The translations under genes and the position numbers were made by a program. Below, in pieces: positions 6,130 through 16,321 of a stretch of DNA of 28,122 bases. The notes beneath the pieces are model-generated. The model was not told where the DNA came from and did not search any database. It saw nothing but the letters and a program-made list of their open reading frames with translations. The stretch lies in UHGV virus genome UHGV-1710763. The stretch is one strand, 5' to 3'. This DNA is from a virus. Within the stretch, counting starts at the first letter, position 1. Each line of letters opens with the position of its first letter.

Positions 6130-7262
6130 TATGCCCCTCCTACTGGGTTAACTGTAACTGTTGCCGCATTAGATGTTACAGAGCCACCTGCACCAGTAAC
6201 TACACAAGTGTAGCTTCCTGCATCAGCAGTGGTTGCACCTTCTTTGGTGTAAGTTGCAGCAGTTGCATCGAGGATGTCTTCCTCACCTTTCTTCCACTGG
6301 TAACCTGTTGCACCTGTTGCCACAACATTCAGTGTTAAAGTCTCACCTTCAGTGATTTCTTGATTGGTTGGCTGTTGAGTGACTACCGGAAGTGCGTTAA
6401 CAATAACCGTTGCAGGGCTAGAAGTGACAGAACCACCTGCACCTGTTACAACGCAAGTGTATGAACCTGCATCTGCTGGCAGAGCACCAGACTTGCTATA
6501 GGTAGCATTTGTCGCTGAAGGAATGTCAGAGCCATCTTTCTTCCATTGGTAACCAGTTGCACCAGTTGCAGTAACTGCTAAGTTGATGTTTCCACCTTCA
6601 TTAATAGTCTGGTTAGAAGGTTGCTTGGTAATCACAGGTAGTGCGTTCACAGTCACTGTTGCTGCATCTGAGGTAACACTTGTTCCACCCTCTCCAGATA
6701 CAACACAAGTGTATGAACCAGCGTCAGAAGGTGCTACTGACTGTTTTGTGTAAGTTGCAGAATTGGCACTAGGGATATCCTCACCATCCTTCTTCCACTG
6801 ATATCCAGTGGCGTTAGTTGCTAGAATGCTTAGAGTAAGTGTGCCACCCTCATTGACTGTTTGACCTGTTGGTTGCTGAGTAATTGCTGGTGGCTTAATA
6901 GCATCCTTCAACTTAGCATTCAACATTGAGAACGGCTTAACTCTTGCCAACCATTCACAGTAAATTGTGTCAACATCTTTACCATTGATGATTGCATACT
7001 GCAAATCCATGAAGAAATCAGCAGTTCTCATCTGTGCACCAACACTGTAAAGCAATTCATCACTAAATGGAACTTTGTAGTCTGGTTTGTAGTCAAACTT
7101 CTCAACTTCTGCAATATCAGCTTCAGGCCAATATGAACTATAGGTAAGTGGTAAAATAGCCTCTTGATATGTTCTAAAATCATATCTCTTACCAGCCTTT
7201 ACATTTGCAATGAAACCCTTCACAAACTCTTTGAAGTCTGGGTAAGTCTTTGCTTTAATCAT
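6129..7262 (-). CDS. protein with an N-terminal domain of unknown function plus three tandem Ig-like (I-set type) repeats
   Basis: Three ~85-aa repeats each ending in the motif DAGSYTCVV(S/T)G and containing ATGYQWKK. Confidence 0.65.
   Translation of the reverse strand: MIKAKTYPDFKEFVKGFIANVKAGKRYDFRTYQEAILPLTYSSYWPEADIAEVEKFDYKPDYKVPFSDELLYSVGAQMRTADFFMDLQYAIINGKDVDTIYCEWLARVKPFSMLNAKLKDAIKPPAITQQPTGQTVNEGGTLTLSILATNATGYQWKKDGEDIPSANSATYTKQSVAPSDAGSYTCVVSGEGGTSVTSDAATVTVNALPVITKQPSNQTINEGGNINLAVTATGATGYQWKKDGSDIPSATNATYSKSGALPADAGSYTCVVTGAGGSVTSSPATVIVNALPVVTQQPTNQEITEGETLTLNVVATGATGYQWKKGEEDILDATAATYTKEGATTADAGSYTCVVTGAGGSVTSNAATVTVNPVGGA
6140..6900 (-). repeat. three tandem ~255-bp coding repeats (Ig-like domains) inside the 6129..7262 gene
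   Basis: Near-identical DNA blocks encoding the repeated Ig-like domain. Confidence 0.6.
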
Positions 7263-9339: not shown

Positions 9340-10755
9340 ATGAGCGAATTATTTAAACATGCGCACCTTCATGCAGGTCGAACTGAAAATGGTGCTGTAA
9401 ACCATACTTCATCAATGTCTGCTCTTGTAGACTTTTACAAAGCTGCTGGTTCAAGCCGTAGCAATGTAGAAATCTTACCAGACCTGTTCTACAAAGCTTT
9501 GCGTGAGGATGTTGATGTTGCAGTTCGTATTTTACTGCATATGCGAGATGTACGAGAAGGTATGGGTGAGCGTAAAGCCTTCAGAACTGTTTTGCTTCAA
9601 GCAATTGAAGATAAAGTTTTAGAGCCTACACAGGTTCTTCGCATTATGGATAAGATTGCAGAACTTGGTCGTTTTGATGACTTCAAAATCTTCGTAGGTA
9701 CTCGTTTCGAGACAGATGCCTTCAAACATTTAGAAGCAGCATTACTAGACCCTGCAACAGCAGGTTTGGCAGCTAAGTGGTTACCACGAGTAAAACCACG
9801 TCACAAACAGTTTGTAAAACGTTTCTGCAAGTTTGCAAACTTGAGTGAGAAGGAGTATCGCACACTGTTATCTGCACTGTCTGATACGGTTGAGCAAAAA
9901 ATCTCTGCTAATGAGTTTGGTAAGATTGACTACAGTAAGATTCCTTCACTTGCTGCTGCACGTTACCAAAAACTCTTTAACCGTAAAGATGGAGAACGCT
10001 ACAAAGCTTACATTGAGTCCTTATCAAAGGGCGAGACTAAGATTAATGCTGGTGCTGTTTATCCATACGATGTGATTAAATCTGTTAAGTATGGTAATGC
10101 AGATGTTGCTAATGAGCAGTGGAAAGCACTACCAAACTGGATGGCAGAGGGTGAAAACATTCTATGTATGTCTGATGTTTCAAGTTCAATGTCTTGGGTG
10201 AATTTTGGTTCAATTACTGCTCTTGATATTGGTGTTTCACTTGCATTGTATGTAGCAGAACGTAATACAGGTTGCTTTAAGAATGAGTTGATGGTTTATT
10301 CAACAAACCCTCACTTCATTGAACTGAGTGGTGATTTACGAAACCGTCATCGTCAGGTGATGCGACACGTTGAATATGGCTCAACTAACTTACAAGCAGC
10401 TTTTGACCGTATTCTTGAGACAGGTAAAAGAAACAACTTGACTCAGAAAGATATGCCAAGTAAGCTTATCATCTTCTCCGATATGGAGTTCAATCAGGTT
10501 GATGGAGCTAACGGTCGTACAAACTTTGAAGCAATTCAGAGTAAGTACAAAAAAGCTGGATATGAGATGCCACAACTGGTATTCTGGTACTTAGCAAACC
10601 GTAATGGCACTTGCGAAGTATCTGTTAAGGATAACGGTGTAGCAATGGTATCTGGTTTCTCTCCAGCCACTTTAAAAGCTTTGCTTGGTGGTGAGAAGTT
10701 TGACCCAATCAGCGTAATGCTCAAAGCAGTAATGATTGACCGTTATATCTGGTAA
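9340..10755 (+). CDS. Ro60/TROVE-like protein: alpha-helical N-terminal region plus C-terminal vWA domain with MIDAS motif (Rsr-like)
   Basis: MIDAS DxSxS in ILCMSDVSSSMSW; C-terminal IIFSDMEF; YPYDVIKSV segment; helical N-terminus. These parallel Ro60 segments as recalled from memory (HPFHILIAL, LLAVDVSASMN, VFIVFTDNE). Confidence 0.55.
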   Translation: MSELFKHAHLHAGRTENGAVNHTSSMSALVDFYKAAGSSRSNVEILPDLFYKALREDVDVAVRILLHMRDVREGMGERKAFRTVLLQAIEDKVLEPTQVLRIMDKIAELGRFDDFKIFVGTRFETDAFKHLEAALLDPATAGLAAKWLPRVKPRHKQFVKRFCKFANLSEKEYRTLLSALSDTVEQKISANEFGKIDYSKIPSLAAARYQKLFNRKDGERYKAYIESLSKGETKINAGAVYPYDVIKSVKYGNADVANEQWKALPNWMAEGENILCMSDVSSSMSWVNFGSITALDIGVSLALYVAERNTGCFKNELMVYSTNPHFIELSGDLRNRHRQVMRHVEYGSTNLQAAFDRILETGKRNNLTQKDMPSKLIIFSDMEFNQVDGANGRTNFEAIQSKYKKAGYEMPQLVFWYLANRNGTCEVSVKDNGVAMVSGFSPATLKALLGGEKFDPISVMLKAVMIDRYIW

Positions 10756-10864: not shown

Positions 10865-10894
10865 TTGACAATCACTAAAAAATAATGTTAAAGT
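10865..10894 (+). promoter_or_regulatory. sigma70-like promoter ahead of the first tRNA
   Basis: TTGACA at 10865-10870; TAAAGT at 18-nt spacing; AAAAAAGTTCTTGACA upstream context. Confidence 0.45.
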
Positions 10895-10920: not shown

Positions 10921-10997
10921 CTCTGTTTAGCTCAGCTTGGTAGAGCGTTCCGTTTGGGGCGGTAAGGCCGGAGGTTCAAGTCCTCCAACAGAGACCA
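10921..10997 (+). tRNA. tRNA-Pro (anticodon TGG)
   Basis: Hand-folded cloverleaf: acceptor CTCTGTT / AACAGAG, D-arm GCTC..GAGC, anticodon loop TTTGGGG, T-arm GGAGG-TTCAAGT-CCTCC, encoded CCA. Confidence 0.7.
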
Positions 10998-11004
10998 AAT
11001 TAAT

Positions 11005-11082
11005 GTTCCAGTAGACAAAATGGTAAAGTCACCACTCTTTCAAAGTGGATATCTGAGGGTTCAAATCCCTTCTGGAACGCCA
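11005..11082 (+). tRNA. tRNA-Glu (anticodon TTC)
   Basis: Acceptor GTTCCAG / CTGGAAC; anticodon stem CCACT / AGTGG with loop CTTTCAA; T-loop TTCAAAT; CCA. Confidence 0.75.
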
Positions 11083-11173
11083 GTTTTGACAGAAGACCAA
11101 TTACAGCAAACTTAATCTTATTCATCTGAAGGTAAATCGGACAAAGAAGAGATTTGGTCTGGTCATTAAGAAT

Positions 11174-11250
11174 TGCGGGTATAGAGAAAGGGCGTCTCAC
11201 ATGTCTCATTAGCATGGTATCGGCAGGTTCGACTCCTGCACCCGCCTCCA
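11174..11250 (+). tRNA. tRNA with CAT anticodon (Met, fMet or Ile-lysidine; identity unresolved)
   Basis: Anticodon stem CATGT / GCATG with loop CTCATTA; T-arm GCAGG-TTCGACT-CCTGC; acceptor has a 1:72 mismatch; CCA. Confidence 0.65.
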
Positions 11251-11334
11251 AATTTACAGAAGACCGTTTACAGCAATACTTATTAAATTTTTAGCGGAAA
11301 AAATTGAAATATACGGTCTGGTAATACTAAACAT

Positions 11335-11411
11335 GGTTAGGAAGCACATAAGGTATGTGCGGTCGCCTGTTAAGCGAATGGCACAGGGTTCGAATCCCTG
11401 ACTAACCGCCA
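11335..11411 (+). tRNA. tRNA-Asn (anticodon GTT)
   Basis: Acceptor GGTTAGG / ACTAACC; D-arm GCAC..GTGC; loop CTGTTAA; T-arm CAGGG-TTCGAAT-CCCTG; CCA. Confidence 0.75.
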
Positions 11412-11480
11412 AATTTAGGAGAGAAGCAATTGCTCACCGATTTGTAAGGTGCAAGTCCTTAGCCTGAATAGAAATTAAAT

Positions 11481-11568
11481 GTGTCGTTATCCCGTAGATG
11501 GTAGCGGTGGGGACTGTAAATCCCTTGTCATTGAGACTCGGTAGGTTCGACTCCTACACGGCACACCA
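11481..11568 (+). tRNA. tRNA-Tyr (anticodon GTA), class II with long variable arm
   Basis: Acceptor GTGTCGT / ACGGCAC; anticodon stem GGGGA / TCCCT with loop CTGTAAA; ~15-nt variable arm; T-arm GTAGG-TTCGACT-CCTAC; CCA. Confidence 0.65.
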
Positions 11569-11573
11569 ATAAA

Positions 11574-11651
11574 GGTTATGTAGTTTAATTTGGTTAAAAT
11601 ACTCCCCTGTCACGGGAGATGATGAGGGTTCAAATCCCTTCGTAACCGCCA
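11574..11651 (+). tRNA. tRNA-Asp (anticodon GTC)
   Basis: Acceptor GGTTATG / CGTAACC; anticodon stem CTCCC / GGGAG with loop CTGTCAC; T-loop TTCAAAT; CCA. Confidence 0.75.
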
Positions 11652-11834
11652 ATTTTGAGAGGGCTATTTAGCCCCTCCCTTAAAGGGTTCTTACGAGTAT
11701 CCTTTAAAGGAGCAGAAGACCAAATACAGCAAGTTACTTAAAATTTCAAGCCAATTTAATTTTGAAAAATTTAAAACTTGGTCTGGCTCAACAAATTTAC
11801 AGAAGACCGTTTACAGCAAAACTTAAACAATCTA

Positions 11835-11907
11835 TTTCTCCGGTAAAGAAAAGGCGAAGGTTCGATTCCTTCACTCGGCAGATGTCGAGTTGGTGTAATG
11901 GTAGCAC
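11835..11907 (+). ncRNA. circularly permuted tRNA-like element (anticodon-like hairpin, T-arm, acceptor stem closed by an AGAT loop, D-arm); candidate Y-RNA-like tRNA mimic
   Basis: Order read directly: TTTCT-CCGGTAA-AGAAA, GAAGG-TTCGATT-CCTTC, ACTCGGC-AGAT-GTCGAGT (7 bp), TG, GTG-TAATGGTAG-CAC; no 5' acceptor partner upstream and no 3' half downstream. Confidence 0.35.
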
Positions 11908-11932
11908 TTAAGATGATAAACAACGGTCTGGT

Positions 11933-12076
11933 AATTATCTTTGTAGATAAGTTATTAAGCTTACCTGTGAGTATGCGACCACAAAGGGTGAAAGGGTAAA
12001 TTCTAGATTTAAACCTAACAAGGCACATCGCTACAGACCTTAAGCAAGTCTGGGTAGCTTATCTACAAAGATAATT
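11933..12076. repeat. perfect 18-19-bp inverted repeat flanking a ~106-bp segment (long hairpin, possible RNase III site or miniature element)
   Basis: ATTATCTTTGTAGATAAG at 11934-11951 is the exact reverse complement of CTTATCTACAAAGATAAT at 12058-12075. Confidence 0.6.
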
Positions 12077-12080
12077 TAAT

Positions 12081-12156
12081 GGAAGTGTAGCAGAATGGTG
12101 ATGCGGCAGACTTTTAATCTGACAGGCGATGGGTTCGAATCCCTCCACTTCTACCA
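12081..12156 (+). tRNA. tRNA-Lys (anticodon TTT)
   Basis: Acceptor GGAAGTG / CACTTCT; anticodon loop CTTTTAA; T-loop TTCGAAT; CCA; paralogue of the Lys(CTT) gene at 13309. Confidence 0.75.
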
Positions 12157-12161
12157 AAAAT

Positions 12162-12238
12162 GGTTCAGTCGCAGATAAGGTAATGCAAGGGTTTCATAAG
12201 CCCTATGAATGTGGGTTCGATTCCCACCTGAACCTCCA
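12162..12238 (+). tRNA. tRNA with CAT anticodon (second copy; Met / fMet / Ile2 unresolved)
   Basis: Acceptor GGTTCAG / CTGAACC perfect; anticodon stem AGGGT / GCCCT with loop TTCATAA; T-arm GTGGG-TTCGATT-CCCAC; CCA. Confidence 0.7.
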
Positions 12239-12239
12239 A

Positions 12240-12315
12240 GCTGGTATAGTTAAGAAGGTTATAACACTCCCCTGATAAGGGAACATCGGTGGTTCGATTC
12301 CACCTACCAGTACCA
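12240..12315 (+). tRNA. tRNA-Ile (anticodon GAT)
   Basis: D-arm GTTA..TAAC; anticodon loop CTGATAA; T-arm GGTGG-TTCGATT-CCACC; CCA. Confidence 0.7.
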
Positions 12316-12330
12316 ATTTCAATAAAGTTG

Positions 12331-12359
12331 TTGACATTGAGATGTGACTACTTTATAGT
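12331..12359 (+). promoter_or_regulatory. strong sigma70-like promoter inside the tRNA island (TTGACA-17-TATAGT)
   Basis: TTGACA 12331-12336, exactly 17-nt spacer, TATAGT 12354-12359, with the AATAAAGTTGTTGACA upstream context. Confidence 0.6.
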
Positions 12360-12562
12360 AACCTTAGTTTTCGTTGCGTAGCGTCTATTTTGCAAATTTA
12401 AAATAAATGCAAACGACAATGTTTTTCTGGCAGTAGCTTGATAGGCTAAACACCAGTGAGGTCTTCCAATCCCTCATCAAAGAATTTGGCGTACTAGCCC
12501 ACGGTATGATTAATAAGGTGGGCATCTTTAAGGGCTTTCTAAGAGAGTCTTTAAAGATTAAT

Positions 12563-12639
12563 GCACCCTTAGTTCAATTGGATAGAGCAACGGTCTTCTA
12601 AATCGTTAGTTACAGGTTCGAATCCTGTAGGGTGTACCA
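12563..12639 (+). tRNA. tRNA-Arg (anticodon TCT)
   Basis: Acceptor GCACCCT / AGGGTGT; D-arm GTTC..GAGC; anticodon stem ACGGT / ATCGT with loop CTTCTAA; T-arm ACAGG-TTCGAAT-CCTGT; CCA. Confidence 0.75.
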
Positions 12640-12780
12640 ATTAGTTAGCAGATTACTTAGACGACCTAAGCGGGTCTTCCTGTAGGGAGGTGGTCTGTAT
12701 CTCATGTTTTCCAGAACATGTAAATAATCTGAGAAGGGGCTTTACAGTGTTGAGATAATACGGTAAGCTTCGAATTATAG

Positions 12781-12867
12781 TATGGGACGATGTTAAGACT
12801 CTAAGGCATGAGCAACGGCTTCCAACACCGTTTCAAAGGGGTTCAACTCATCCGTCCCATGCCAAAG
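12781..12867 (+). ncRNA. unresolved tRNA-like structured element (11-bp terminal stem, 9-nt-loop hairpin with CTTCCAA, T-loop-like GGGGTTCAA, ends GCCA)
   Basis: TATGGGACGATG pairs with CATCCGTCCCATG; internal hairpin AACGG-CTTCCAACA-CCGTT; no canonical cloverleaf could be drawn. Confidence 0.3.
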
Positions 12868-12877
12868 TCTTATTAGG

Positions 12878-12965
12878 GGTAGGTAGCGGCTAATGGTAGC
12901 CAAACAGTCTTGAAAACTGTTGCCACTGTAGAGATACGGTGAGGGTTCGACTCCTTTACTTACCG
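12878..12965 (+). tRNA. tRNA-Ser (anticodon TGA), class II; CCA not encoded
   Basis: Acceptor GGTAGGT / ACTTACC; anticodon stem ACAGT / ACTGT perfect with loop CTTGAAA; long variable arm; T-loop TTCGACT. Confidence 0.6.
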
Positions 12966-13223
12966 CCTAATAAGATTTTACACCGTCCATGCTTGCTCGC
13001 ATTTTCGGTTTATCCCTCGTGTATTGTCGTACACACTGATAAAGCACCTAGTAGGTGTCACGGAGAAGAGATAATATCAAGCTCTCCAAAGGTTCTAGCC
13101 ACCGGATTAAACAAGACTATGCAAAGACCTTTTTAGGTCTTTTTAGAGGGCTTCTAAGGTTATTACAGCTTGTTGTGGAACCTTGTTGCTTAGGTTCTTA
13201 GAAGTTCTCTAAAAAGATTTAAT

Positions 13224-13301
13224 GGGAGATTGACGGTAATTGGTAAACCTACCATCCTTAGAAGTTGGTGTTTGAGGGTTCGAATCCCTTGTCTCCTACC
13301 A
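13224..13301 (+). tRNA. tRNA, anticodon provisionally TAG (Leu) on a class-I-length scaffold; identity uncertain
   Basis: Acceptor GGGAGAT / GTCTCCT (two G-U pairs); loop CTTAGAA between CCATC / GTTGG (one mismatch); T-arm GAGGG-TTCGAAT-CCCTT; CCA; D-arm irregular. Confidence 0.5.
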
Positions 13302-13308
13302 AATTAAT

Positions 13309-13384
13309 GCAGGTGTAGCAAAATGGTTATGCGGCTGACTCTTAATCAGTAAGACGATGGGTTCAATTCCCTCCACCTGTACCA
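13309..13384 (+). tRNA. tRNA-Lys (anticodon CTT)
   Basis: Acceptor GCAGGTG / CACCTGT; anticodon stem GCTGA / TCAGT with loop CTCTTAA; T-loop TTCAATT; CCA. Confidence 0.75.
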
Positions 13385-13391
13385 AACAATG

Positions 13392-13467
13392 GGGGTCATA
13401 GTTTATATGGTTAAAATTCGAGTTTTGCAAACTTGGGAACTGAGTTCAATTCTCAGTGACTCCACCA
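13392..13467 (+). tRNA. tRNA-Ala (anticodon TGC)
   Basis: Acceptor GGGGTCA / TGACTCC; anticodon stem CGAGT / ACTTG with loop TTTGCAA; T-arm CTGAG-TTCAATT-CTCAG; CCA. Confidence 0.75.
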
Positions 13468-13473
13468 ATTAGT

Positions 13474-13548
13474 GCATCCATAGTTTAAACGGGAAAATTA
13501 CAGTCTTCCAAACTGAGGTTGAGGGTTCGATTCCCTCTGGATGCTCCA
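13474..13548 (+). tRNA. tRNA-Gly (anticodon TCC)
   Basis: Acceptor GCATCCA / TGGATGC perfect; loop CTTCCAA; T-arm GAGGG-TTCGATT-CCCTC; CCA. Confidence 0.75.
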
Positions 13549-13562
13549 AATTAAGGTGTGAT

Positions 13563-13976
13563 ATGAAAATATGCAGTACTTGCAGAATACCAAAAGATGA
13601 AAGCTTATTCCATAAGAATAAGAACAAGAAAGACGGTCTTCAAAGTCAATGCAAAGATTGTGCAAGACTTCGTGATGCAAAGAGTTATCAAGCAAATGAT
13701 AAAAGGAAAGAGGCTATTAAAAGCACTCGTAACTTCAAGAGAGAGCATAACAAGACTCTAGCTAGAAGGTACAAAGCTTTATGCAAATGTCATATATGTG
13801 GTGAGAAAGAACCAGTTGCACTGGATTTACACCATACAGACCCTTCCCAGAAAGATTTGAATCCTGCATCACTTTATTCATACTCCACAAAAAGATTAAA
13901 AGATGAAATCAGAAAGTGCATTGTCTTGTGCGCTAACTGTCACAGAAAAGTACATGCTGGTATCATAAAAGTTTAA
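13563..13976 (+). CDS. HNH family endonuclease (free-standing homing-endonuclease-like gene)
   Basis: Cys pairs CKDC and CKCHIC plus an HNH core (LDLHHTD ... N ... CANCHRKVH) in the translation; sits between tRNA-Gly and tRNA-Thr. Confidence 0.7.
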   Translation: MKICSTCRIPKDESLFHKNKNKKDGLQSQCKDCARLRDAKSYQANDKRKEAIKSTRNFKREHNKTLARRYKALCKCHICGEKEPVALDLHHTDPSQKDLNPASLYSYSTKRLKDEIRKCIVLCANCHRKVHAGIIKV

Positions 13977-13977
13977 T

Positions 13978-14054
13978 GCTGCTTTCGTATAATTGGCTAT
14001 TACACATCCCTTGTAAGGATGGAAATGCAGGTTCGAGTCCTGTGAGCAGCACCA
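13978..14054 (+). tRNA. tRNA-Thr (anticodon TGT)
   Basis: Acceptor GCTGCTT / GAGCAGC; anticodon stem CATCC / GGATG perfect with loop CTTGTAA; T-loop TTCGAGT; CCA; starts 2 nt after the HNH stop codon. Confidence 0.8.
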
Positions 14055-14149
14055 ATTCAGAGGTCAAGTGAAAGACCGCTGGTGTCAACTGAAGACCGTA
14101 ACAAATTCCACGGAGTTGAGTTAGCGGCACAACTTCAGACCTCTTTCAT

Positions 14150-14224
14150 ACTCGCTTAGTTTATATGGTAAAACATCACCCTTACAAGATGAAGAGAAAG
14201 GTTCAAGCCCTTTAGTGAGTACCA
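14150..14224 (+). tRNA. tRNA-Val (anticodon TAC)
   Basis: Acceptor ACTCGCT / AGTGAGT; D-arm GTTT..AAAC; loop CTTACAA; T-arm AAAGG-TTCAAGC-CCTTT; CCA. Confidence 0.65.
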
Positions 14225-14225
14225 T

Positions 14226-14303
14226 GTTCCAGTATCCCAATTGGCAGAGGATGCAAGCTCAAACCTTGTACTAGTGACGGTTCGAATCCGTCTTGGAACA
14301 CCA
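14226..14303 (+). tRNA. tRNA with CAA anticodon (Leu-type) but only a 6-nt variable region
   Basis: Acceptor GTTCCAG / TTGGAAC; anticodon stem GCAAG / CTTGT with loop CTCAAAC; T-arm GACGG-TTCGAAT-CCGTC; A73; CCA. Confidence 0.6.
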
Positions 14304-14308
14304 ATTTT

Positions 14309-14384
14309 GCAGGATTAGTTCAAATGGATAGAGCAACAGTCTACGAAGCTGTTAATAGGGGTTCGAATCCCTTATCCTGCGCCA
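14309..14384 (+). tRNA. tRNA-Arg (anticodon ACG)
   Basis: Acceptor GCAGGAT / ATCCTGC perfect; D-arm GTTC..GAGC; anticodon stem ACAGT / GCTGT with loop CTACGAA; T-loop TTCGAAT; CCA. Confidence 0.8.
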
Positions 14385-14403
14385 ATTTAAAGAGGCTATT
14401 TAG

Positions 14404-14961
14404 ATGAGATATTTGAAGTATGCTTCATGGATTTTCTTAGCTTTGTTAGAGCCATTTGCAGCAATCTTAGCAGTTATCTTAGCACCTTTTGTAGTTCCAT
14501 TCTACAGTGAGAAGAAAGGACACTTACCTTTCGGATTCAGATGGATGGAGACATATGACAACCCAATTGATGGTGATGAAGGTCACGTTAAAAGATGGGC
14601 TAATATTAGATGGATTGGTAAACTAGGTGTCTACATGCAAAGAGTCGGATGGCTCTGGAGAAACAAAGCTTATAACTTCTCTTACCATGTATTAGGAAGA
14701 GATGTAAAAGATGTTACTAAGTGGAAAGGTAATATCAACGTAAGTTCTAACCCTGAAGATAATCAGACAGGTTATCTCCTAATGTGGAACAGCAATGCTT
14801 GGGGATTATTCGCTTTTATCCCATCAATTAAAATCTTTGGTAAACAGTTCTACTGGAGAATTTATATTGGGTGGAAGCTAAAAAGTGTTGTCCCAGAAGA
14901 AAGAGCATTCTCAAGGGAAAGAGTTATGTTGGCATTCTTTATTCATCCACTAAGAAAGTAA
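14404..14961 (+). CDS. hypothetical membrane protein (hydrophobic N-terminus, Trp-rich)
   Basis: ORF-track ORF; N-terminal hydrophobic stretch WIFLALLEPFAAILAVILAPFVV; embedded between tRNA genes. Confidence 0.55.
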   Translation: MRYLKYASWIFLALLEPFAAILAVILAPFVVPFYSEKKGHLPFGFRWMETYDNPIDGDEGHVKRWANIRWIGKLGVYMQRVGWLWRNKAYNFSYHVLGRDVKDVTKWKGNINVSSNPEDNQTGYLLMWNSNAWGLFAFIPSIKIFGKQFYWRIYIGWKLKSVVPEERAFSRERVMLAFFIHPLRK

Positions 14962-14969
14962 AGATTTAA

Positions 14970-15045
14970 AGGGGATTAGTTTACAAGGTTAAAACCTCGG
15001 TCTTTGAAATCGAAGAAGTTGGTTCAATTCCAACATCCCCCGCCA
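14970..15045 (+). tRNA. tRNA-Gln (anticodon TTG)
   Basis: D-arm GTTT..AAAC; anticodon stem TCGGT / ATCGA with loop CTTTGAA; T-arm GTTGG-TTCAATT-CCAAC; weak 1:72 pair; CCA. Confidence 0.7.
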
Positions 15046-15047
15046 AT

Positions 15048-15126
15048 GCTCCATTACTCCAATTGGCAGAGAGGCCAGACTTAAAATCTGTGTTATGTAT
15101 CGGTTCGAATCCGATATGGAGTACCA
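15048..15126 (+). tRNA. tRNA with TAA anticodon (Leu-type) but only a 7-nt variable region
   Basis: Acceptor GCTCCAT / ATGGAGT; anticodon loop CTTAAAA; T-arm ATCGG-TTCGAAT-CCGAT; A73; CCA. Confidence 0.6.
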
Positions 15127-15131
15127 AATTT

Positions 15132-15207
15132 AGCGGTATAGCATAACTGGCAATGCAACAGTCTCTGAAGCTGTCTTATTAAGGTTCAAATCCTTATGCC
15201 GCTGCCA
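15132..15207 (+). tRNA. tRNA-Gln (anticodon CTG)
   Basis: Acceptor AGCGGTA / TGCCGCT; anticodon stem ACAGT / GCTGT with loop CTCTGAA; T-arm TAAGG-TTCAAAT-CCTTA; CCA. Confidence 0.7.
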
Positions 15208-15238
15208 CTTCTAAGGGTTCTTACGAGAGTCCTTAAAT

Positions 15239-15314
15239 GTGGCCTTATCATAAATGGTAATGACCCATGCTGTGAACATGGTCTATACGGGTTCAAATCC
15301 CGTAGGTCACCCCA
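15239..15314 (+). tRNA. tRNA-His (anticodon GTG)
   Basis: Acceptor GTGGCCT / AGGTCAC; D-arm TCAT..ATGA; anticodon stem CCATG / CATGG perfect with loop CTGTGAA; C73 discriminator; CCA. Confidence 0.75.
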
Positions 15315-15321
15315 ATTTATA

Positions 15322-15396
15322 GTCCAAGTAGCTTATATGGTTAAAGCGCGTGTCTGAAAAACATGAGAAGAGGGTTCAAATCCCACTGGACTACCA
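15322..15396 (+). tRNA. tRNA-Phe (anticodon GAA); acceptor register ambiguous
   Basis: D-arm GCTT..AAGC; anticodon stem CGTGT / ACATG with loop CTGAAAA; T-loop TTCAAAT; ends ACCA. Confidence 0.65.
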
Positions 15397-15412
15397 ATTT
15401 CAAAGGTGCTTA

Positions 15413-16147
15413 ATGAAAGAGATGACAGAACAAGGTAAGGAGATTTTTAATCTCTTAAAAACCGGTAAAGGGTTTTCTAACCCACTTATTACTGGTGCAG
15501 CAGTTCTCGGTGGAACCGTAGCTGCCTCTACATCACTTGTAAGCTCTATTAGCTCTGTAACAGACCCTACAACGAAGGAGAAACTTGTTGCTGCTGGACT
15601 TACAACAGTTCTTCTAAACAGCTTTACAACAAGCCTGACAAGCACTACAGCAACTACTAAGACCCTAACAGACTACGGTCAAAAGTCTATTGATGAGTTT
15701 TCATCACGTATGCAGGTGGCAAAGGGATATTCCAATGTTATGGGTGCAGCAGGAGAACAAGTTGGTTGTACACCATTCAGTGGTATTATGGGTGTTGCTA
15801 CAGAGTATGGTCAGCAAGCTATTGACATGATTAACAGCACACTAGACAGTGTTAACGGTGTGTTAAGTGACTTACAAGATGCTATTGACAAGGGTCTTGA
15901 TACTGTTTCTGATTTAGCTAACCAAGCTGTAAGTAAGATTAATGAAGGTATTTCAAAGATTACAGCTTATGCAGATGAAGTTGTGCAGATGATTGAAGAA
16001 GAAGCTGCCCTTATTGCAGAGTACCTTAAAACGAATATCAATGGGTTCTTAGCAGGTATCTTACCAGACTGGTTTGATGATGCCTGTAAAACTGGTGTAA
16101 TTGACACTATTGCAACACCAGAAATGAAGAACGCATTACAGAAATAA
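15413..16147 (+). CDS. hypothetical Ser/Thr-rich protein; start moved downstream of the track ORF (15350) to the first ATG clear of tRNA-Phe
   Basis: Track ORF 15350..16147 overlaps the tRNA at 15322-15396; the in-frame ATG at 15413 has AAAGGTG upstream. Confidence 0.55.
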   Translation: MKEMTEQGKEIFNLLKTGKGFSNPLITGAAVLGGTVAASTSLVSSISSVTDPTTKEKLVAAGLTTVLLNSFTTSLTSTTATTKTLTDYGQKSIDEFSSRMQVAKGYSNVMGAAGEQVGCTPFSGIMGVATEYGQQAIDMINSTLDSVNGVLSDLQDAIDKGLDTVSDLANQAVSKINEGISKITAYADEVVQMIEEEAALIAEYLKTNINGFLAGILPDWFDDACKTGVIDTIATPEMKNALQK

Positions 16148-16148
16148 T

Positions 16149-16241
16149 GGAAGATTAACCCTAAAAGGTAAGGGAGCAGTTTGCTAAACTGCCAGTAGCT
16201 GAGAAATCGGTGTACCAGTTCAAGTCTGGTATCTTCCTCCA
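16149..16241 (+). tRNA. tRNA-Ser (anticodon GCT), class II with long variable arm
   Basis: Acceptor GGAAGAT / ATCTTCC perfect; anticodon stem GCAGT / ACTGC perfect with loop TTGCTAA; ~20-nt variable arm; T-arm ACCAG-TTCAAGT-CTGGT; CCA. Confidence 0.8.
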
Positions 16242-16245
16242 ATTT

Positions 16246-16321
16246 GAATCCGTGACAGAAATGGCTATGTGCCTGTCTGCAAAACAGGTTTATAAGGGTT
16301 CGAGTCCCTTCGGATTCTCCA
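16246..16321 (+). tRNA. tRNA-Cys (anticodon GCA)
   Basis: Acceptor GAATCCG / CGGATTC perfect; anticodon stem CCTGT / ACAGG perfect with loop CTGCAAA; T-arm AAGGG-TTCGAGT-CCCTT; CCA. Confidence 0.8.

Follow-up and report, generated by a model that had tools for sequence, protein, structure and literature searches.

What does a perfect inverted repeat do when it lies inside a phage tRNA island, directly ahead of a tRNA gene? The question is raised by the virus genome UHGV-1710763 of the UHGV collection, a DNA of 28,122 nucleotides (the whole stretch is called the window here), in which such a repeat spans positions 11933-12076. The initial annotation described a perfect 18-19-bp repeat enclosing about 106 bp and proposed an RNase III substrate, the stem of a larger structured RNA, or a miniature inverted-repeat insertion that had disrupted an ancestral tRNA. 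Our analysis shows the repeat to be no DNA palindrome but the helix (P1) that closes a conserved + strand RNA, and we lean, with modest confidence, towards reading this ~145-nt non-coding RNA as a long-stem member of a Y-RNA-like family and a partner of the Ro60-like protein encoded upstream. The 451 bases around the hairpin are 98-99.8% identical to Felix O1-like phages (Felixounavirus; 98.2% for Felix O1 itself). ARAGORN finds 26 tRNA genes in the window, all on the + strand, and the hairpin sits in a 429-nt gap without a tRNA, between tRNA-Asp (11574-11651) and tRNA-Lys(UUU).

A repeat search returned arms at 11933-11954 and 12055-12076 (22 nt, 95% complementary, 100 nt between them). Read base by base, 11933-11951 and 12058-12076 form 19 perfect Watson-Crick pairs around ~106 nt, as annotated, and beyond these a U·G, two Watson-Crick and two U·G pairs extend the helix to 24 pairs (11933-11956 with 12053-12076) enclosing 96 nt. 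The sole comparable inverted repeat in a scan of the window is another pre-tRNA hairpin at 13133-13222, all others being at most 82% complementary. The arm sequence occurs in the window at its own two sites only (0.03 expected), and the suggested search for the repeat elsewhere gave no match in 5,426 complete E. coli genomes (20,395 replicons). The element folds at -47.1 kcal/mol (z = -4.7 against 200 shuffles). Besides tRNA, no Rfam 15 family overlaps it in the window even at E-values up to 10, nor does any non-tRNA family in six related loci at E up to 0.1. A scan for intrinsic terminators does not report the hairpin, whose A+U-rich stem is followed by UAAU and the tRNA, not by a U tract, and literature searches for published transcriptomes of Felix O1-like phages gave nothing usable.

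We compared orthologous segments from Felixounavirus (pSJ21, NBSal004), Mooglevirus (Sf19, KMM2, ESh21, Michonne, Moogle) and Suspvirus (SUSP2) with distant orthologues reached through the upstream protein at 63-53% identity (Yersinia phage P778, labelled L130, and loci labelled L125, L126, L127, L132 and L133). Across nine lineages P1 has 22-30 pairs, with 1-4 G·U pairs in each, around 80-116 nt, and its 5' arms are 46-83% identical between lineages (at most 73% between distant ones). In an alignment of 11 sequences P1 is 99.6% paired, with compensatory, both-side changes in 8 of 23 pairs; controls with the partners slid by 1-3 columns give 29-43% pairing and 0-1 pairs changed on both sides. 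With a covariance model of the hairpin the + strand reaches 138 bits and the - strand 30, a strand specificity that arises from the G·U pairs, and the model recovers the orthologues at the expected place in L126, L127, L130, L132 and L133. In every collected relative the long stem ends 1-11 nt 5' of tRNA-Lys(UUU), and at least its 3' arm and a mini hairpin are present in all 250 phage records that carry this tRNA-Lys.

This mini hairpin, annotated as an inner CAGAC ... GTCTG hairpin, is found as described, with CUUAAGCAA as its loop. Just inside the 3' arm, nine of nine lineages have a mini hairpin with the loop C-YUNAGCAA on stems that differ by compensatory changes (CAGUC/GACUG, CAAACC/GGUUUG, CUGUUC/GAACGG, AGAGAC/GUCUCU and AAAGUC/GACUUU). 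Collectively, the pairing and covariation of P1, the strand-specific score with + strand G·U pairs in nine lineages, the conserved enclosed sub-structure and the fixed position ahead of tRNA-Lys establish that the repeat closes a conserved + strand RNA, so that the annotated option of a larger structured RNA holds.

The interior between P1 and the mini hairpin exists in two sequence forms, A (window and Felix O1) and B (pSJ21, NBSal004, Moogle- and Suspviruses), with conserved islands GAGU and AUUCUAGAUU. It starts with AAGCUU, which joined to the last bases of the P1 5' strand reads UUAUUA-AGCUU, like UUAUUACAGCUU of a second long-stem hairpin described below. Form B occurs in Mooglevirus and Suspvirus and, despite their Felix-like flanks, in the Felixounaviruses pSJ21 and NBSal004, a distribution that suggests cassette exchange by recombination. 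The interiors of L127 (~7065-7080), L133 and L130 contain a small hairpin with a conserved 7-nt loop, UAACGUU, that includes the palindrome AACGUU and sits on covarying stems (AGCG/CGCU and GUG/CAC); in the Felix and L125 forms the palindromes UCUAGA / ACUAGU occupy a comparable position, and such palindromic loops could serve as a loop-loop dimerisation site. The covariance model also gives weak matches around tRNA-Ser(UGA) (L127 8091-8208, L130 8502-8621, L133 8093-8208), which suggest a stem formed by the sequences flanking that tRNA.

Several other identities were considered for the hairpin and rejected. A protein-coding function was set aside, the only open reading frames being of 22-85 aa and none conserved. 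ARAGORN finds no two-piece (permuted) transfer-messenger RNA (tmRNA), an Rfam tmRNA_permuted match lies elsewhere (12257-12441) and below threshold (29 bits vs 47), and the tRNA mimic described below has full D and V arms and no G3:U70; short reading frames in the hairpin (e.g. MSADEFLEHDSRLAY in form B) are not conserved, since pSJ21 and SUSP2 have truncated versions and form A has a different one. For small self-cleaving ribozymes (hammerhead, hairpin, twister and similar) there were no core motifs by eye and no Rfam match. The features of the locus are collected in Table 1.

Table 1. Features of the window (positions in the window) and unit regions in other phages (positions in the labelled locus).
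Feature	Position	Strand	Remarks
Gene for 471-aa protein with predicted Ro60 fold	9340-10755	+	Pfam DUF2828 + DUF7788
Sigma-70-like promoter match	10865-10894	+	Upstream of first tRNA; consensus scan only
Unit 1: UGAC-AGA-AGACCAA(U)-UACAGCAA ... UUGGUCU-G-GUCA	11087-11165	+	
Unit 2: UUAC-AGA-AGACCGU-UUACAGCAA ... ACGGUCU-G-GUAA	11254-11324	+	
Unit 3: GAGC-AGA-AGACCAA-AUACAGCAA ... UUGGUCU-G-GCUC	11710-11789	+	
Unit 4: UUAC-AGA-AGACCGU ... ACGGUCU-G-GUAA, signature UUACAGCAA	11797-11934	+	Encloses YrlA-like tRNA mimic
Mimic, V arm	11835-11851	+	
Mimic, T arm	11856-11872	+	
Mimic, acceptor-like hairpin	11873-11890	+	
Mimic, D arm	11893-11907	+	
P1 5' strand, AAUUAUCUUUGUAGAUAAGUUAUU	11933-11956	+	First 19 nt are the perfect repeat arm
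Variable interior domain, 2-3 small hairpins	11957-12033	+	From alignments and folds
Mini hairpin, CAGAC-CUUAAGCAA-GUCUG	12034-12038 / 12048-12052	+	Abuts P1 3' strand
P1 3' strand, GGUAGCUUAUCUACAAAGAUAAUU	12053-12076	+	
tRNA-Lys(UUU)	12081-12156	+	ARAGORN, Rfam; 5' end 4 nt past P1
Second long-stem hairpin (paralogue)	13124-13222	+	1 nt 5' of tRNA-Leu(UAG)
Unit regions	L138 2080-2475; L137 2460-2510; L139 3945-4200; L140 2360-2500		Aeromonas, Vibrio, Mycobacterium, Campylobacter phages
Unit regions	L128 5441-6135; L131 5525-5990		Two metagenomic phages

To what kind of RNA does the hairpin belong? The + strand upstream of it carries four copies of a bulged-stem unit, CAGAAGACC-NNN-U(A/U)ACAGCAA ... 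NNN-GGUCUGG (also written CAGAAGACC-NNN-UNACAGCAA ... NNN-GGUCUGG), each built of an outer helix, an AGA/G internal loop, an inner helix and the signature ACAGCAA, and all four bulged stems carry UACAGCAA. The outer helices covary among units (UGAC/GUCA, UUAC/GUAA, GAGC/GCUC), as do the inner ones (AAU/AUU, GU/AC, AA/UU). Two of the four units flank tRNA-Met (11174-11250), and the last 2 nt of unit 4 (11933-11934) overlap the first 2 nt of P1.

Unit 4 encloses the element that had been annotated as permuted and as a possible disrupted ancestral tRNA; it is an intact tRNA mimic of the YrlA type, not a broken tRNA, with its arms in the order found in YrlA, the tRNA-mimicking bacterial Y RNA (PMC4201824). 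Among seven sequences 95.9% of cells in the mimic are paired, vs 36-49% in slid controls, with compensatory changes in 14 of 32 pairs, including six of the seven in the acceptor-like hairpin, which is closed and 7 bp long (ACUCGGC-AGAU-GUCGAGU). The loop of this hairpin encodes a discriminator base and CCA in Michonne, Moogle and L126, a feature that recalls YrlA of M. smegmatis, an RNA that is cleaved by RNase P and receives CCA. The acceptor-like stem has only 5 bp in L127, and L125 lacks the mimic entirely. A permuted group I intron yielding a circular tRNA was rejected for the mimic: there is no group I match even at E = 10, the flanks are independent conserved hairpins, and the YrlA architecture fully explains the arm order. 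A CTTAA/TTAAG helix joining the ends of the mimic was also discarded, being lost in Sf19 and Michonne.

The hairpin lies 1.2 kb downstream of a gene on the same strand whose 471-aa product matches DUF2828 and DUF7788 only in Pfam, with no TROVE match, and has no sequence match in the PDB. Its AlphaFold model (predicted local distance difference test, pLDDT, 85; predicted template modelling score, pTM, 0.86) returns Ro60 structures as all ten best Foldseek matches, among them Xenopus Ro60, Deinococcus Rsr and the Ro60 of Thermus phage phiLo (E ~1e-7, template modelling score at most 0.64), and a Ro60 fold is predicted for the protein on this basis. The protein is 97.9% identical to the product of a Bas63 gene directly upstream of that phage's tRNA genes, which we take to be gp130, a protein reported to be structurally Ro60-like and to counter Ppl defence (bioRxiv 10.1101/2024.10.10.617714). 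That some phage "tRNA genes" may be Y RNAs is offered in the same preprint as a guess only (bioRxiv 10.1101/2024.10.10.617714). Homologues are found in at least 710 phage records with proteobacterial, actinobacterial and Firmicutes hosts, and include mycobacteriophage proteins annotated as "Ro-like RNA binding protein". Just downstream of the Ro60-like gene in L127 (5501-5563) there is an Rfam match to skipping-rope RNA, below threshold (29.1 bits vs a gathering threshold of 36.7).

Other phages too have units of the form stem + (U/A)ACAGCAA clustered in the non-coding DNA next to homologous Ro60-like genes and on the strand of the gene, a co-occurrence of the motif with the gene family. The units, like the hairpin, have no counterpart in Rfam 15. 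Aeromonas phage 4_4572 has five units, one with a stem of 21 bp; Mycobacterium phage BigCheese has three, one of them a tRNA mimic; Campylobacter phage CP81 has two; and the single unit of Vibrio phage ValKK3 lies in the 5' untranslated region with the start codon within its 3' strand, an arrangement that could serve autoregulation. Because they travel with DUF2828-type Ro60-like genes in many phages, these RNAs are likely Y-RNA-like partners of this type of protein.

The hairpin itself connects to the unit family through its orthologues and its inner module. In L126 the orthologous stem ahead of tRNA-Lys begins AAUUUGCAAAGAAUCU-UUCAGCA, the leader and signature of the L126 units, and L126 (AA/CC internal loop) and L132 have AA/CC-type mismatches at a place comparable to the internal loop of the units; in L132 the stem is followed by UUACAGC. 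Directly 5' of tRNA-Lys(UUU), L131 has a stem of the unit type, UUAGC-AA-UGAAGUAG-UUCCGCAA ..., which is served by its own promoter and carries both the unit 5' signature GAAGUAG-UUCCGCAA and an internal loop. In the window P1 is followed by UUAUUAAGCUU, degenerate in having AAGCUU for ACAGCAA, and the nested mini hairpin, a stem with CUUAAGCAA, resembles a unit reduced to "stem + AGCAA", its insert empty. With the AGA/G loop missing from P1 and AAGCUU degenerate, membership in the unit family rests on the mini hairpin and on the L126 and L131 orthologues.

A second hairpin in the window, ahead of tRNA-Leu(UAG), consists of a small AAGACC/GGUCUU helix followed by a stem of ~26 bp (13133-13222), with UUAUUACAGCUU after the 5' strand. 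It scores 25 bits with the covariance model of the first hairpin, has a fold z of -5.4, shares UUAUUA(C)AGCUU with the first hairpin and has homologues in Sf19 and L125. The interior UUGUUGCU is kept in Sf19 and L125 and complements the AGCAA motif. The loops CUUAAGCAA of the first hairpin and UUGCUUAGG of the second could form 9 bp in the window; a kissing interaction between them may be imagined but gains little support, since in Sf19 and L125 the flanking positions show no covariation and the pairing is reduced to a 5-nt core, AGCAA/UUGCU. The stems of L126, L132 and L131, the match to the second hairpin and the mini hairpin lead us to read the hairpin as, most likely, a long-stem paralogue of the unit family.

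From these data we infer how the hairpin RNA may be transcribed and processed, what it may bind and what its biological role may be. The RNA would be part of a polycistronic tRNA precursor downstream of the Ro60-like gene, for which the promoter match ahead of the first tRNA is a candidate transcript start covering units 1-4, the long-stem RNA and tRNA-Lys. In the consensus scan the next strong match, a near-consensus TTGACA-17-TATAGT, is at 12331-12359. It would consist of P1, a variable multi-hairpin domain of ~80 nt and the conserved mini hairpin with its AGCAA loop, with a 3' end set by RNase P at the 5' end of tRNA-Lys(UUU) (12080/12081). P1 would act as a rigid arm if intact, or might be trimmed by RNase III; the mini hairpin and its AGCAA module would be the docking site of the Ro60-like protein, and the variable domain could be a tether or a decoy for another factor, much as Y RNAs tether Ro60 to effectors.

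Several observations weigh against a Y-RNA-like partner of the Ro60-like protein. Neither the hairpin nor the units conserve the canonical motif for Ro60 binding (GGUCCGA in animals, GNCGAAN0-1G in bacteria): GCCGAAG occurs in Sf19 only, and GGCGAAG is part of the T stem of the mimic and absent in Michonne. A stem as long and regular as P1 is atypical of Ro60-binding stems; it is uninterrupted, without the AGA/G internal loop of units 1-4, and the AAGCUU after its 5' strand is only a degenerate ACAGCAA. The interior is poorly conserved, with two divergent forms. The modules are also separable in viable phages, SP116 being without the hairpin and tRNA-Lys, ESCO49 and L125 without the mimic, and warpig without units 2-3. 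Finally, expression, ends and protein binding of the hairpin are points that we infer from sequence.

The main rival, unlikely in our view yet deserving serious attention, is that the hairpin serves tRNA-Lys solely as a processing signal or 5' leader, for an RNase III cut or RNase P access, with the enclosed RNA discarded. E. coli RNase III needs about two helical turns. The stem, with 19 perfect and 24 total pairs (22-30 across lineages), is of the size associated with the enzyme (at least 20-22 bp of regular double-stranded RNA), and the annotated RNase III substrate is plausible, as no lineage has fewer than 22 pairs, about two turns. The fixed position directly 5' of tRNA-Lys, the second such stem directly 5' of tRNA-Leu(UAG) and an interior that diverges fast into forms A and B fit this reading as well. 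The RNase III stalks at the flanks of 16S and 23S rRNA and the sites in phage T7 early transcripts offer a parallel: here too the sequences on either side of an RNA, within a presumed polycistronic precursor, pair into a stem of at least 22 bp. In contrast to those stalks, the enclosed RNA is small and cleavage is putative; internal loops are absent from the stem in the Felix O1 lineage, and L126 and L132 have A·C mismatches. A spacer, however, would not need the AGCAA mini hairpin and the interior islands, which are kept across lineages at ~53% protein identity; the L126 and L131 orthologues bear the Y-like unit signature, and no long-stem or bulged-stem hairpin of this kind precedes 21 of the 26 island tRNAs. 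Moreover, pSJ21 has an HNH gene in place of the second hairpin, directly before tRNA-Leu, so that tRNA maturation does not require a stem of this sort. The case for a processing stalk is thus weakened by pSJ21 and by the conservation of the inner hairpin.

It is improbable that the RNA is tied to tRNA-Lys(UUU) independently of the Ro60-like protein, for example as a decoy or guard against host nucleases. Synteny with this tRNA, a classic target of anticodon nucleases, is strict in all lineages, and in L131, where the gene order is different, a dedicated promoter serves the stem RNA and tRNA-Lys. Against such a guard, in L125, L126 and L127 the stem of the mini hairpin shows no co-variation with the anticodon stem of its cognate tRNA-Lys, which also led us to reject the mini hairpin as a mimic of that arm; there are no tRNA-like T or D elements within the hairpin, and nuclease binding is purely hypothetical.

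We give very little credence to a repeat acting as DNA, whether as a cruciform, a protein-binding palindrome or a recombination site: it is long, near-perfect and palindrome-like and lies in an often-rearranged region, but its G·U pairs, three to four per lineage, would be A·C mismatches in the other strand or in a DNA cruciform, arm pairing is conserved while arm sequence is not, and natural deletions end in T arms and ACAGCAA repeats, not in the repeat arms. Least probable of all, and already contradicted, is the annotated insertion into a tRNA gene, as a miniature inverted-repeat transposable element or another selfish element, for despite the terminal inverted repeats, a length of ~144 bp and an island rich in homing-endonuclease genes, the element is single-copy in the window and without a match in the E. 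coli replicons, is flanked by TGGT and TAAT and thus has no target-site duplication, occupies the same site in all relatives, shows compensatory arm changes and G·U pairs that make sense only in a + strand RNA, and adjoins an intact tRNA mimic where a broken tRNA had been supposed.

A Y-RNA-like partner of the Ro60-like protein, the reading that we favour, can be compared with known systems. As with the Y RNAs YrlA, YrlB, Yrn1 and Yrn2 (Chen et al. 2014, PMC4201824) and Yrl1/2 of phiLo (PMC12135203), the RNA is encoded near a Ro60-type gene on the same strand, its terminal stem, made of the 5' and 3' ends, encloses an internal module (24 bp and 96 nt in P1), several paralogous RNAs lie at one locus, and one of these (unit 4) is a tRNA mimic with the order V, T, closed acceptor, D. 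Like the Yrn2-tRNA-Asp-Yrn1 arrangement of D. radiodurans, the window RNAs are encoded among tRNAs, with co-transcription presumed, and "long hairpin" members are represented by YrlB and Yrn2. Unlike in those systems, the protein is of the DUF2828/DUF7788 type and related to Ro60 by fold only, the signature is stem + (U/A)ACAGCAA with an AGA/G loop in place of GGUCCGA or GNCGAA, and the stem of the hairpin is much longer and uninterrupted, with Ro60 binding putative. Unlike YrlA, the hairpin itself has no T or D loop, such mimic features belonging to unit 4. The tRNA cluster of phage T4 includes the stable RNAs species 1 and 2 (rnaC/rnaD), which are small, structured and co-transcribed with the tRNAs; the hairpin resembles them as a small structured RNA interleaved with phage tRNAs, differs in that no sequence or Rfam relation was detected, and to our knowledge no Ro60-like gene lies beside the T4 cluster.

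Natural deletions in relatives, seen against 11250-12160 of the window, involve the same modules. In SP116 (L010) the T arm of the mimic is joined to that of tRNA-Lys, with loss of the hairpin and tRNA-Lys; in warpig (L012) two AAAUUUACAGAAGACCGUUUACAGCAA (ACAGCAA) repeats are joined, with loss of units 2-3; and in ESCO49 (L011) tRNA-Asp through the mimic is missing and the hairpin is kept. Judged from the SP116 and warpig junctions, the repeated RNA modules appear to drive rearrangement of the island.

Elsewhere in the island (10921-16321) an ...(A/U)AAU precedes nearly every tRNA, and nearly every tRNA encodes CCA. In the gap at 12316-12562 a stretch that resembles a degenerate tRNA includes a T-arm-like GUGAGGUCUUCCAAUCCCUCAUCA (~12456-12479), and a hairpin of 16 bp ends just 5' of tRNA-Arg. 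A small repeated hairpin, AAGGGUUCUUACGAG(U/A)(A/G)UCCUU, occurs at 11681-11708 and 15213-15235, again in L125 and in an altered form in L130. The gaps at 13549-13977, 14385-14969 and 15397-16148 have a protein-coding appearance, and HNH endonuclease genes occur in the same island of related phages.

Ro60 with its Y RNAs is a conserved module for RNA surveillance, and little is understood of what it does in bacteria and phages. The system described here appears best placed within the Ro60/Y-RNA kind, with a long-stem RNA and a unit family that seem previously undescribed. As a tentative extension, held with less confidence than the Y-RNA-like reading itself, DUF2828-type proteins may have their own undescribed class of "stem + (U/A)ACAGCAA" RNAs, multiplied among the tRNAs of Felix O1-like phages, with the hairpin as the member coupled to tRNA-Lys(UUU) and a ribonucleoprotein that counters defence (Ppl in Bas63), perhaps through a guarding, repair or decoy activity around phage tRNAs. 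The Felix O1-type protein has been shown in a preprint to be an anti-defence factor and Y RNAs among phage tRNAs had only been guessed, and it is for this reason that the candidates matter: the locus supplies concrete ones with coordinates, namely four bulged-stem units, one tRNA mimic and two long-stem RNAs, and a short signature, stem + ACAGCAA, found again next to homologous genes of unrelated phages. The role of Y-RNA candidates beside a Ro60-like gene is now directly testable, and annotators have a way to avoid calling such loci empty spacers or hypothetical open reading frames.

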